Source: Candidatus Micrarchaeota archaeon
Lineage (GTDB): Archaea > Micrarchaeota > Micrarchaeia > Anstonellales > Bilamarchaeaceae
Assembly (NCBI GenBank): GCA_043816005.1
Contig: JBDRIM010000010.1
Span: forward strand, 1-13,771
Direction: 5' to 3'
Length of the DNA: 13,771 nucleotides
The translations under genes were made by a program, and so were the position numbers. Each line of letters begins with the position of its first letter. Positions within the stretch are counted from its first letter, which is position 1. The notes beneath the pieces were generated by a model. The model saw nothing but the letters and a program-made list of their open reading frames with translations. It ran no database searches and was not told the origin of the DNA. Positions 5,185 to 9,453 of the stretch are shown here, one piece after another.

Positions 5185-5781
5185 TTAATCAAGATGAGAT
5201 AATATTCTTATAGCTGCATTAGAAACCTCACTGCTCAGATCTCCCCTCAATTGTATAATAGCCTGTTTGAGGGATGGGTGAACCCCAGTATTATCAACAA
5301 CTACCCGACTCTCGATTTGATTAAGTGCAAGTCTTTTTTCATTTTCACCGCCGTTAAGTAGAAGTGCTTCCAGAAAACCATACCCAATAGTCTTTACATG
5401 ATTATTATTTGAATAAAGTAAAGAACCAAAAATACCAATTATACCAAGACGTTCATAATCCGTGCCACGTAAAGCATAATATCGCAGATCAACAACCAAA
5501 GTATGGAGAAACGGATCATTATTTTCACGTTCAAATATGCCTGTGAAAAAATTTTTCAGACGAACTCTAAGATCATAATTAGAACTATTAAAGATTGCAA
5601 TAAAATTCCTTAGAAGATCTGGTTGTTGTTTAAGTTTATCAAAAAGTGCTAAATCTTGATGAACGTTTAACGCAGATGCAATCTGGCGTTTCGCCCACCA
5701 TGCAACTAATGGATTTTGATGTTTGAATCCTCGCTCTTGCTCATGTGCAACATGACCAAGTACTGCGTGTCTGATACTCAC
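5185..5781 (-). CDS. Hypothetical alpha-helical protein, possibly HEAT/ARM-like
   Basis: 198-aa ORF with a GTG start after a GGTGGGGGG SD-like run. Amphipathic helical segments, ending in DLSSEVSNAAIRIL. Confidence 0.55.
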   Translation of the reverse strand: MSIRHAVLGHVAHEQERGFKHQNPLVAWWAKRQIASALNVHQDLALFDKLKQQPDLLRNFIAIFNSSNYDLRVRLKNFFTGIFERENNDPFLHTLVVDLRYYALRGTDYERLGIIGIFGSLLYSNNNHVKTIGYGFLEALLLNGGENEKRLALNQIESRVVVDNTGVHPSLKQAIIQLRGDLSSEVSNAAIRILSHLD

Positions 5782-5930
5782 AGGATCCCCCCACCATAAT
5801 ATGGTGGATAGACGGGTTTTTGTGGATTGTGGTTTTGTGTAAAGACGAAAGATATTTAAGCCGAACTATGAAATAATCAATCCACGAATTATTACATTAG
5901 ATGAATTTTTTTAAAATATGAGGTAATGTC

Positions 5931-6042
5931 ATGGGTGCTAAACCAAGAAAATGGAAATCGATCCGAACAAGTTCGGTTCTTTCCATTTTCTCTGACGTTT
6001 TTAAGAGGTATGAATATGGGTGCTAAACCAAGAAAATGGAAA
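5931..6042 (+). repeat. Exact 27-nt direct repeat of the first 9 codons of eL41, with an inverted copy between the two repeats
   Basis: ATGGGTGCTAAACCAAGAAAATGGAAA at 5931-5957 and 6016-6042. TTTCCATTTTCT (5980-5991) is the reverse complement of AGAAAATGGAAA. Confidence 0.95.
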
Positions 6043-6129
6043 AAGAAAAACAGAATGCGCTGGAATTGGGTAACGAAAAAGCGCAAACGACTTAGAAAAA
6101 AAATTAAACGAAGAGTAGGTGAACTCTAG
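6016..6129 (+). CDS. rpl41e: Ribosomal protein eL41 (L41e), 37 aa
   Basis: MGAKPRKWKKKNRMRWNWVTKKRKRLRKKIKRRVGEL matches the archaeal L41e pattern PRKWKKKxRMRWxWxKKRxRRL. GAGGTA SD at 6005-6010. Confidence 0.88.
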   Translation: MGAKPRKWKKKNRMRWNWVTKKRKRLRKKIKRRVGEL

Positions 6130-6517
6130 AACATTGATGCGGTCCTTCAACATGGTGCTCCGCAGGAGCACCTTCTCTAATTCTTTGAAATGTTGAAGCA
6201 TCGTAAGTAGATACTGGAATATAAACCAAATAAACATAGCGAGTTGGATTAAAACTTGCTGTTCTTTCATCTCTTGTCGGTTCTTGACCATCAGTAACAA
6301 AAATTAGAGAACACTTTTTTTCTGTTTCAAGTTCTCTTACTCTGGATGATGCAACTCTAGGATTTATTGCAACTAAACGAGTTACAAAAATTCCAAGAGT
6401 TTCTTCTCTGTCGCCCAGAGTACACACTAAAAGATCTACAGGTTTACTAACTTTTCCATTTGATTTTGTGGCATGCACGATAGCATAATTACTGTGTTGA
6501 ATTGTTCGAGGATTCAT
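6104..6517 (-). CDS. Hypothetical protein
   Basis: 137-aa ORF with ATG after a GGTGG SD. No recognisable motif. Its 3' end overlaps eL41 convergently by 26 nt. Confidence 0.5.
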   Translation of the reverse strand: MNPRTIQHSNYAIVHATKSNGKVSKPVDLLVCTLGDREETLGIFVTRLVAINPRVASSRVRELETEKKCSLIFVTDGQEPTRDERTASFNPTRYVYLVYIPVSTYDASTFQRIREGAPAEHHVEGPHQCSRVHLLFV

Positions 6518-9062: not shown

Positions 9063-9084
9063 AAAAAGAACCTTGGTTCTTTTT
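9063..9084. repeat. Perfect 10-bp inverted repeat in the P0-L12 spacer
   Basis: AAAAAGAACC-TT-GGTTCTTTTT, ending 2 nt before the GAGGTG SD of L12. Confidence 0.85.
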
Positions 9085-9097
9085 ATGAGGTGTAAAA

Positions 9098-9403
9098 ATG
9101 AAAGTAGATCCATATTTGCACGCTGTGCTTGTTTTGCATGGCGCTGGGAAAGAAGTTAGTAAGGAAAGCATTTTAGCTGTTGTAAAGGCAAGTGGTGCTG
9201 AAGTCGATGAGGCTCATGCAAAAGTACTTGCTGAAGCAGTTAAAGACGTAAACTTCGAAGACCTTCTAAAACAATCAGCAATGGTTGCAGCAGCTCCAGT
9301 TGCAGCAGCTCCAGCAGCTGAAGGAAAGAAAGAAGAAAAGAAGGAAGATGAAGGAAAGAAAGAAGAACAAGCAGCAGAAGGTTTGGCTAACTTGTTCGGG
9401 TAA
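9098..9403 (+). CDS. rpl12: 50S ribosomal stalk protein P1/L12 (archaeal)
   Basis: YLHAVLVLH.AGKEV N-terminus, Ala/Pro hinge, charged stretch and C-terminal GLANLFG. Confidence 0.97.
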   Translation: MKVDPYLHAVLVLHGAGKEVSKESILAVVKASGAEVDEAHAKVLAEAVKDVNFEDLLKQSAMVAAAPVAAAPAAEGKKEEKKEDEGKKEEQAAEGLANLFG

Positions 9404-9453
9404 GCGTAGCGAACCCGGACAATCTTGAACTTGTTCAAGGCTTGTTCGGTTAA
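9391..9453 (+). repeat. Double hairpin bracketed by a duplication of the rpl12 3' end
   Basis: CTTGTTCGGGTAA (9391-9403) and CTTGTTCGGTTAA (9441-9453), period 50 nt. Hairpins: TTGTTCGGGT/ACCCGGACAA (9392-9422) and CTTGAAC-TT-GTTCAAG (9424-9439). Confidence 0.85.

Follow-up and report, generated by a model that had tools for sequence, protein, structure and literature searches.

A palindromic insertion that repeats the start of the eL41 gene in a Micrarchaeota archaeon is apparently one member of a start-codon-associated family

The 13,771-nt stretch of DNA that we analysed (the window) is an entire contig of the 1.26-Mb genome bin (G000) of an uncultured Candidatus Micrarchaeota archaeon; the bin is spread over 85 contigs and is 86% complete with 5.5% contamination. 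In addition to the locus described here, the window encodes archaeal S10, L1, P0, and an IF-2B family protein. The locus itself contains a 37-codon gene at 6016–6129, whose product matches the archaeal ribosome chains 6tmf_c, 9fny_A2, 6skf_Bk, and 6sw9_0 with E values of 7e-5 to 2e-4; by these sequence matches the gene is eL41, also named eS32. It lies between two minus-strand ORFs, one of 198 aa (5185–5781) and one of 137 aa (6104–6517), the latter converging on eL41 and overlapping its last 26 nt. Searches of Pfam and NCBIfam returned no family for the 37-aa protein, for the peptide encoded upstream of it, or for the two flanking ORFs. The features of the locus are as follows.

5846–5869, plus strand: BRE/TATA-like motif cgaaagatatttaagccgaactat, the putative promoter of eL41, common to most members of the genus with or without the insert
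5917–5957, plus strand: copy 1 of the gene start, with Shine-Dalgarno sequence SD1 (GAGGTA, 5920–5925), start codon ATG1 (5931), and the first 9 codons (to 5957); 41-nt repeat at 85% identity, the last 27 nt exact
5925–5999, plus strand: the whole long hairpin of the minimum-free-energy fold, with outer helix 5925–5931/5993–5999, arm helix 5946–5957/5980–5991, and tip
5931–6026, plus strand: decoy upstream ORF from the ORF list, 31 codons plus TAA, ending 8 nt inside eL41; equivalents of 23–31 codons in 7 of 7 aligned carriers
5958–5979, plus strand: tip hairpin module TCGAT-CCGAAC-AA-GTTCGG-TTC, stem 5963–5968/5971–5976, recognised from sequence, repeats, and fold; nearest copy in the genome at C73:11697
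5980–5991, plus strand: inverted arm TTTCCATTTTCT, the reverse complement of codons 6–9 (AGAAAATGGAAA) in both copies; two 12-nt inverted repeats at 100%
5992–6015, plus strand: spacer and second Shine-Dalgarno sequence, SD2 (GAGGTA, 6005–6010), read from the sequence
6016–6129, plus strand: eL41 (eS32) gene, 37 codons, with PDB sequence matches to archaeal L41e/eS32 chains; repeat copy 2 is 6016–6042

A first-pass annotation had described this region as eL41 preceded by a decoy copy of its own start, and its account of the anatomy agrees with the sequence throughout. GAGGTA stands at 5920–5925 and again at 6005–6010, each time 5 nt 5' of an ATG (ATG1 at 5931 and ATG2 at 6016), and the 27 nt at 5931–5957 recur exactly at 6016–6042, giving a repeat period of 85 nt. 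The upstream ORF encodes the 31-residue product MGAKPRKWKSIRTSSVLSIFSDVFKRYEYGC, and its TAA (6024–6026) falls within the 37-aa gene. The arm is 100% complementary both to 5946–5957 and to 6031–6042 (codons 6–9), and the hairpin is capped by CCGAAC-AA-GTTCGG at 5963–5976. A repeat search of the window extends the duplication to 41 nt at 85% identity (5917–5957 and 6002–6042), indicating that the SD is included in it. The palindromic element thus sits nine codons into eL41 and is followed by a second copy of the gene start. In the minimum-free-energy fold, an extra 7-bp helix between 5925–5931 and 5993–5999 (with one G-U pair) closes the hairpin over the A of ATG1.

Allowing up to 5 mismatches, no other match to the spacer and SD2 (5992–6015) exists in the genome. 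GAGGT before ATG2 is kept in six of seven carriers, and L026 has GGGGT. Given the usual TATA-to-start distance from the motif at 5846–5869, transcription of eL41 would be expected to begin upstream of copy 1, near 5880–5890. A search of RNA sequencing runs found none that contains this stretch. A further ATG, at 5926 in the spacer between SD1 and ATG1, shares the eL41 reading frame and begins a 67-codon ORF (5926–6129) for an N-terminally extended eL41; its use seems unlikely because it lies only 1 nt after the SD.

Although an eL41 relative was found in 39 of 41 related genomes, the duplicated layout is patchy among them. It occurs in 5 of 30 fetched loci (that of G000 and those of G010, G011, G017, and G012). 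Of 57 named loci around L1, 41 include eL41, and four of these were flagged: L041, L076, L089, which is the same DNA as G011, and L066, which is a decayed copy. Overall, the site is occupied in eight genomes including the source, so that a search of relatives, proposed as a check in the first-pass annotation, finds the layout upstream of eL41 in the assemblies of seven other genomes, one of them decayed. The insertion point is constant, following AAATGGA-A, and the repeat periods range from 84 to 95 nt. ATG1 is intact in seven of the eight carriers. Decay is seen in L066, where copy 1 has ATG changed to ATA and TGG to CTG, and in L041, where SD1 is weakened to GATGA.

The closest kin have an empty site: the sister genome G023, G003, and loci L040, L042, and L045. 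The promoter regions of these last three are nearly identical to that of the carrier L041, yet they have no insert. Moreover, a related groundwater contig joins 5930 directly to 6016, skipping exactly 85 nt (5931–6015). On a tree of 26 genomes, the five eL41 carriers require five changes, at least four of which are forced by well-supported branches. This tree was made by a quick method from 380 columns of S15 and HTH proteins, and 9 of its 23 inner branches are well supported; both genes themselves host elements, and their duplicated parts were left out. The case for mobility of the eL41 element is drawn from presence and absence alone, and, as a counterpoint, a single old insertion could have become equally patchy if recombination between the direct repeats removed it precisely in some lineages. 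One of the two origins suggested in the first-pass annotation, an insertion with a long target duplication, gains support from the empty sites in kin, from the exact 85-nt skip, and from recurrence of the arrangement at unrelated genes.

This recurrence is evident within G000. A genome search with the region showed that the hairpin part of the eL41 structure is found again on contig C73 at the gene for an HTH regulator, whose start is present three times and whose arms, AAAATGGAAA and TTTCCATTTT, are as at eL41. The C73 tips are GCGAAC-AA-GTTCGC and GTGAAC-TGC-GTTCAC, and the eL41 tip plus arm differs from C73 at 7 of 34 nt. The same order of parts (gene start, tip hairpin, inverted flank copy, new SD, gene start again) was found at the genes for S15, S3Ae, an Sm-like protein, adenylate kinase, S12, a DnaG-like Toprim protein, PcrB/GGGPS, class I LysRS, PurA, and the HTH regulator. 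Several of these genes carry more than one unit: S15 has three in tandem (one with nested hairpins), and S3Ae, the Sm-like gene, and the HTH gene have two each. At S15 on contig C40 (12550–12830, minus strand; locus L091), the gene start follows three tandem units that each end in ...TTTTTATGGCA, and the outermost tip (TTGAAC...GTTCAA) holds two more hairpins nested in its loop.

We also looked at hairpins across the genome as a whole. In a census, 28 had both an inverted arm (6 nt or longer) and a flank repeat (8 nt or longer) no more than 130 nt away, compared with 5 in a shuffled genome. The 8-mer flanking a hairpin is repeated downstream in 12–19 of 900 hairpin orientations at offsets 0–15, versus 3–8 at offsets 20–60. 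Perfect hairpins whose stem is 7 or longer and has 3 or more GC number 451, versus 167 after shuffling (2.7x), and recurrent stem types are TTGAACG, TTGACCG, TTGTTGC, and xxGAAC; tips of the form NNGAAC-loop-GTTCNN recur across many loci and genomes. A strict scan for a perfect arm plus tip returned 18 matches with no dominant geometry, and the 5-mers adjoining hairpin stems showed no single dominant flank. Tip flanks seem very often to hold ATGG or ATGN, as ATGGC, ATGCC, and ATGAC at start codons. At eL41 and HTH, the motif is an internal AAAATGGA about 7–9 codons into the gene, which implies that the whole N-terminus had to be re-copied. The inverted arms vary with the host gene (TTTCCATTTT, TTATAAAAATTT, CAAAACCC), and the duplication ranges in length from about 6 nt (ATGGCA, at S15 in G005) to 45 nt (at C73).

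A related structure within the window involves the end of a gene rather than its start. The sequences CTTGTTCGGGTAA at 9391–9403 and CTTGTTCGGTTAA at 9441–9453 form a repeat at a spacing of 50 that comprises the 3' end of a gene, including the stop codon, and brackets a CTTGAAC-TT-GTTCAAG hairpin at 9424–9439. This 3'-end duplication indicates that the process also acts without a start codon, where control of a start codon is not at stake. By its sequence, the ORF with the duplicated end (9098–9403) encodes an acidic ribosomal stalk protein. When reverse-complemented, the gene-end words AACTTGTTCGG also give the 11 nt with which the eL41 tip hairpin begins.

In relatives, the element was found at 4 of 25 S15 loci and at 5 of 25 loci of the HTH gene, together with two relic-like HTH loci; copy 1 of the HTH gene is frameshifted in L139. 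At L135 and L138 (G002 and G014), an arm-like CTCCATTTT and then an SD lie upstream of HTH with no recognisable tip or first copy, and CTCCATTTT may here be the relic of a partly deleted element. Elements occupy different genes in different genomes, and only G000 has those at eL41, S15, and HTH together. Among the order's 176 genomes, 11 matched a strict pattern for the ATGGCA-type unit, and these belong to a single family (10 of 98 when G000 is set aside, and 0 of 77 outside the family); G000 had the most matches, with 5, and the reversed control pattern had none.

Comparison of the carriers shows which parts are copied from where. Within a genome, the two eL41 copies differ at 0–3 of 27 nt and share that genome's own synonymous codons, which differ between genomes. 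The arm tracks these codons, with TCT for AGA in G000, CCG for CGG in G017, and TCG for CGA in G011. In three genomes, the innermost base of the arm fits copy 2 (…GGAAG) and not copy 1, and over the alignment the paired cells of the arm make up 96.4% with copy 2 as the partner, compared with 92.9% with copy 1. Across seven genomes, 10 of 25 pairs change on both sides, a level reached in 0 of 500 shuffles, and 88.5% of cells are paired, compared with 28–58% when the partners are slid. Such both-side changes affect 4 of 6 pairs in the tip helix and 4 of 7 in the outer helix. This covariation fits templated copying as well as it fits selection on RNA structure, being equally expected from either.

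In most carriers, identity between the copies begins at or within 1–2 bases of the start codon, and the SD regions differ. At S15 in G005, the arm has as its partner the spacer of the element itself and not the local SD region, and in that genome the arm and SD2 at HTH match other lineages and not the local sequence; these mismatches to the local flank indicate that the tip, arm, and SD can travel as a block. Genome G016 carries a lineage-specific base change in both HTH copies, though its element appears to be homologous with the one in the sister genome G022, suggesting that copies are also homogenised after insertion.

Taken together, we think it probable, though well short of certain, that the eL41 structure is one copy of a lineage-restricted Micrarchaeota family of small palindromic (hairpin) insertions. 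Each unit has a GC-containing tip hairpin, an inverted copy of the 5' flank, and a spacer with a Shine-Dalgarno sequence, after which the start of the interrupted gene is repeated. The elements lie beside ATGG or ATGN motifs, which in most cases are the start codon, and the copies that survive would be those with an intact SD, start codon, and N-terminus behind the insert, so that the host gene works. On this reading, the architecture of the insert accounts for the upstream ORF and its decoy start, for the long hairpin, and for the arm with two partners. We infer that this DNA is mobile or duplicative and has little if any selected function, resembling selfish DNA that the host tolerates and not a purpose-built switch.

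Such units might spread with no dedicated transposase involved, being copied from one gene start to another by ectopic conversion or by template switching guided by microhomology (at ATGG). Filled alleles could be exchanged between species by homologous recombination, and fold-back copying could make or renew the inverted arm. We prefer copying to transposition because the duplication is long and variable, because the flank is present in both orientations, and because no Y1 transposase, TnpB, or GIY-YIG protein was found. The search for these proteins (PF01797 for Y1) covered the 86% complete genome G000, and its PF01797 control was positive in 6 of 14 known genomes. No donor of the element was found either. 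An IS200/IS605-type element was considered and set aside, since neither a Y1 transposase nor TnpB was detected in G000 and long flank repeats do not fit this class.

A different reading is that the structure serves selected translational control, in which a decoy or leader ORF and a toggling arm let ribosome traffic on the leader set the initiation of eL41 by coupling, masking, or attenuation, whether as a purpose-made device or as a domesticated insertion. The first-pass annotation had proposed a switch of this kind, and its physical premise, two near-equal pairings of the arm, holds: the alternative foldings have energies of −31.2 and −28.5 kcal/mol, a difference of 2.7. When copy 1 is kept single-stranded, the computed fold pairs the arm with eL41 codons 6–9, and SD2 and ATG2 are open in the best fold. 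Taken alone, the hairpin at 5925–5999 has a folding energy of −26.2 kcal/mol (z −4.5), which is beyond chance and is reached by 0 of 300 shuffles; it is the hairpin that stands out, as the fold of the whole region is unremarkable (z −1.6, equalled by 12 of 200 shuffles). In the mRNA, this long hairpin would partly mask ATG1. A terminator-like hairpin with a T-rich tail was also flagged at 5963–5976, the arm and tip helices covary over the seven genomes, with the outer-helix changes given above, and a single site is occupied in eight genomes, all of which would suit a regulatory role.

The upstream ORFs add to this case and also limit it. All seven in the aligned carriers begin with ATG and stop between 17 nt before and 8 nt after ATG2. 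Ending so close to ATG2, they favour coupling or reinitiation over blocking, and ribosomes finishing the decoy ORF may be able to reinitiate at ATG2. The specific claim that a freed arm blocks eL41 fares poorly, since the arm lies inside the upstream ORF and would be covered by the very ribosome that had released it from copy 1. The decoy peptide shows no conservation beyond the duplicated 9 residues in the aligned carriers. A switch dedicated to eL41 is also hard to reconcile with the patchy distribution, including absence from the sister genome and most relatives, and with the loss of the decoy start in L066 (ATA) and the weak SD1 of L041. Finally, the same architecture is found at unrelated housekeeping genes and at the 3' end of a gene, and units are stacked two to three deep at S15 and HTH. 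Absence from most relatives, decay, stacking, unrelated housekeeping hosts, and the 3'-end case favour a family of insertions over a device of eL41, and we consider selected control fairly unlikely.

Known RNA classes gave no better account of the structure. Rfam matched only two microRNA models, at E values of about 1 and far under the gathering score. A bulge-helix-bulge, the mark of exon-intron borders in archaeal introns, is defined by two 3-nt bulges with a 4-bp helix between them; by eye, the arm and tip helices at eL41 are split by a 5-nt by 3-nt internal loop whose sides are opposite, not staggered as in 3-4-3, and an archaeal intron was rejected. A kink-turn or L7Ae site was likewise rejected, as the loops of the copies inspected by eye lack tandem G-A pairs.

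Another possibility is a purely local replication accident, in which a template switch or fold-back at the start of eL41 generated the inverted and direct copies and the tip de novo, independently of any family of elements. Fold-back with re-priming is described in the template-switch literature as yielding a direct copy, an inverted copy, and a direct copy, which is the order observed; the arm exactly reverse-complements local codons, and the spacer plus SD2 is unique in the genome. However, a de novo origin does not predict the match of tip plus arm to C73 (7 differences in 34 nt), the NNGAAC-loop-GTTCNN tips at many loci and genomes, or the parts of the G005 elements that are unlike their local flank. 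We regard a purely local event as improbable.

An assembly artefact, in the form of a chimeric or mis-joined repeat in the metagenome bin, is scarcely credible: the bin is fragmented and partly contaminated, as noted, and the spanning sequence asked for in the first-pass annotation was obtained only in part, with no single contig covering 5700–6400 and 6132–6400 uncovered, but a 249-nt Logan contig, possibly derived from the source sample, covers 5779–6027 with 0 differences, and the layout recurs with lineage-specific sequence in the assemblies of seven other genomes, which are separate records.

Returning to a family of palindromic insertions as the preferred explanation, the closest parallels are with small mobile hairpins of other organisms. 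The REP, BIME, and REPIN sequences of bacteria, which are moved by RAYT (IS200-like Y1) transposases, are also short imperfect palindromes that form hairpins, occur in many dispersed copies and tandem clusters, lie at gene boundaries, and are co-transcribed with their neighbours (PMC3116915, PMC3337134). The many dispersed palindromes of G000 (451 hairpins against 167 after shuffling) agree with this description. Unlike REP and REPIN, the Micrarchaeota copies have an inverted flank copy and a long direct target repeat of variable length (5 to about 45 nt), lie at start codons or immediately behind them, where they restore an SD and a start codon, and reside in a DPANN archaeal host; PF01797 gave 0 matches to a RAYT/Y1 gene in the 86% complete G000. 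Whereas IS200/IS605-type chemistry inserts without target duplication, the repeats measure 27–41 nt at eL41 and 8–45 nt elsewhere.

MITEs are a second parallel, exemplified by the Correia/NEMIS elements of Neisseria, bacterial MITEs that are co-transcribed with genes. Like MITEs, the inserts described here are small, non-coding, and near gene starts; they fold in the mRNA and may bring expression signals. In MITEs, all copies share terminal inverted repeats that belong to the element, and the target duplication is short, with a fixed length. In our case, the arm reverse-complements a local or donor flank and depends on the host gene, so that terminal inverted repeats of the element's own are not present in all copies, and the duplication varies from about 6 to 45 nt. 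With regard to a related transposase source, three protein families were searched in G000 and none was found.

The GC clusters of yeast mitochondria are mobile hairpins as well, and their description (PMC4478555) reports rapid turnover, stem-preserving substitutions, merger or nesting, interspecies exchange at conserved flanks, and an unknown enzyme. They carry 2–3 nt flank repeats (AG, ACT), are mostly intergenic, and, unlike the Micrarchaeota elements, are not described there as duplicating translation starts (PMC4478555). None of REP/REPIN, MITEs, and GC clusters has a long variable flank duplication with an inverted copy, or rebuilds starts.

Upstream or leader ORFs with coupling or attenuation, such as the erm leaders and those in ribosomal-protein operon feedback, offer the nearest regulatory comparison. 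Like these leaders, the eL41 structure has a short ORF whose end falls at or near the main start, along with a stretch of RNA that can pair in either of two ways. Such leaders, however, stay with their gene and have a sensing step, whereas the eL41 insert is patchy, decaying, and common to unrelated genes. A conserved cis-leader of eL41 would be present lineage-wide, and the layout occupies 5 of 30 fetched loci and 4 of the 41 with eL41, the sister genome having none; the compensatory base pairs expected of a leader are present, and templated copying would give the same. In a full-text search of the openly accessible literature, no description of such elements was found. RepRanger treats REP-like palindromes in archaea in general terms, and its main text contains neither 'start codon' nor 'duplication'.

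The eL41 case would be a well-documented member of an apparently undescribed start-codon-associated family. A wider proposal can be offered only tentatively: Micrarchaeota may carry undescribed palindromic elements that seek start codons and compensate their own insertion, landing on ATGG-type motifs, bringing an SD, and leaving a re-copied gene start. On this proposal, they would spread without an element-encoded transposase, through microhomology-guided template switching or ectopic conversion together with allele exchange between species, and stacks of decoy starts could give heritable, reversible tuning of the translation of housekeeping genes.

If the family is real, a large share of the structures in ultra-small archaea that combine a decoy start with a hairpin would be footprints of selfish DNA and not gene-specific riboregulators, and the annotation of such leaders would change. 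It is unusual that the inserts lie in the most sensitive part of essential genes (ribosomal proteins, an aminoacyl-tRNA synthetase, a primase) and that the host genes are left working through a rebuilt translation start. Equally unusual is the copying of the flank in both inverted and direct orientation, which points to copying and not to a cut-and-paste transposase. Upstream ORFs that are coupled to essential genes would also be raw material for the evolution of real translational control.

Further hairpins in G000 were observed outside these units. Within the window, a AAAAAGAACC-TT-GGTTCTTTTT hairpin at 9067–9080 lies between the P0 gene and the SD and start that follow it. This A5-GAAC...GTTC-T5 type recurs intergenically on other contigs and resembles a two-way terminator or an intercistronic hairpin. 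Chains of two to four adjacent perfect hairpins bracketed by ATG...CAT were seen at C5:19661, C41:83096, C40:33496, and C54:26742; their members include ATTGTTGC-NNN-GCAACAAT, CAAGAACG-NNNN-CGTTCTTG, and CATGAACG.... Some hairpin chains in G000 lie directly after start codons, for example that of PurA.
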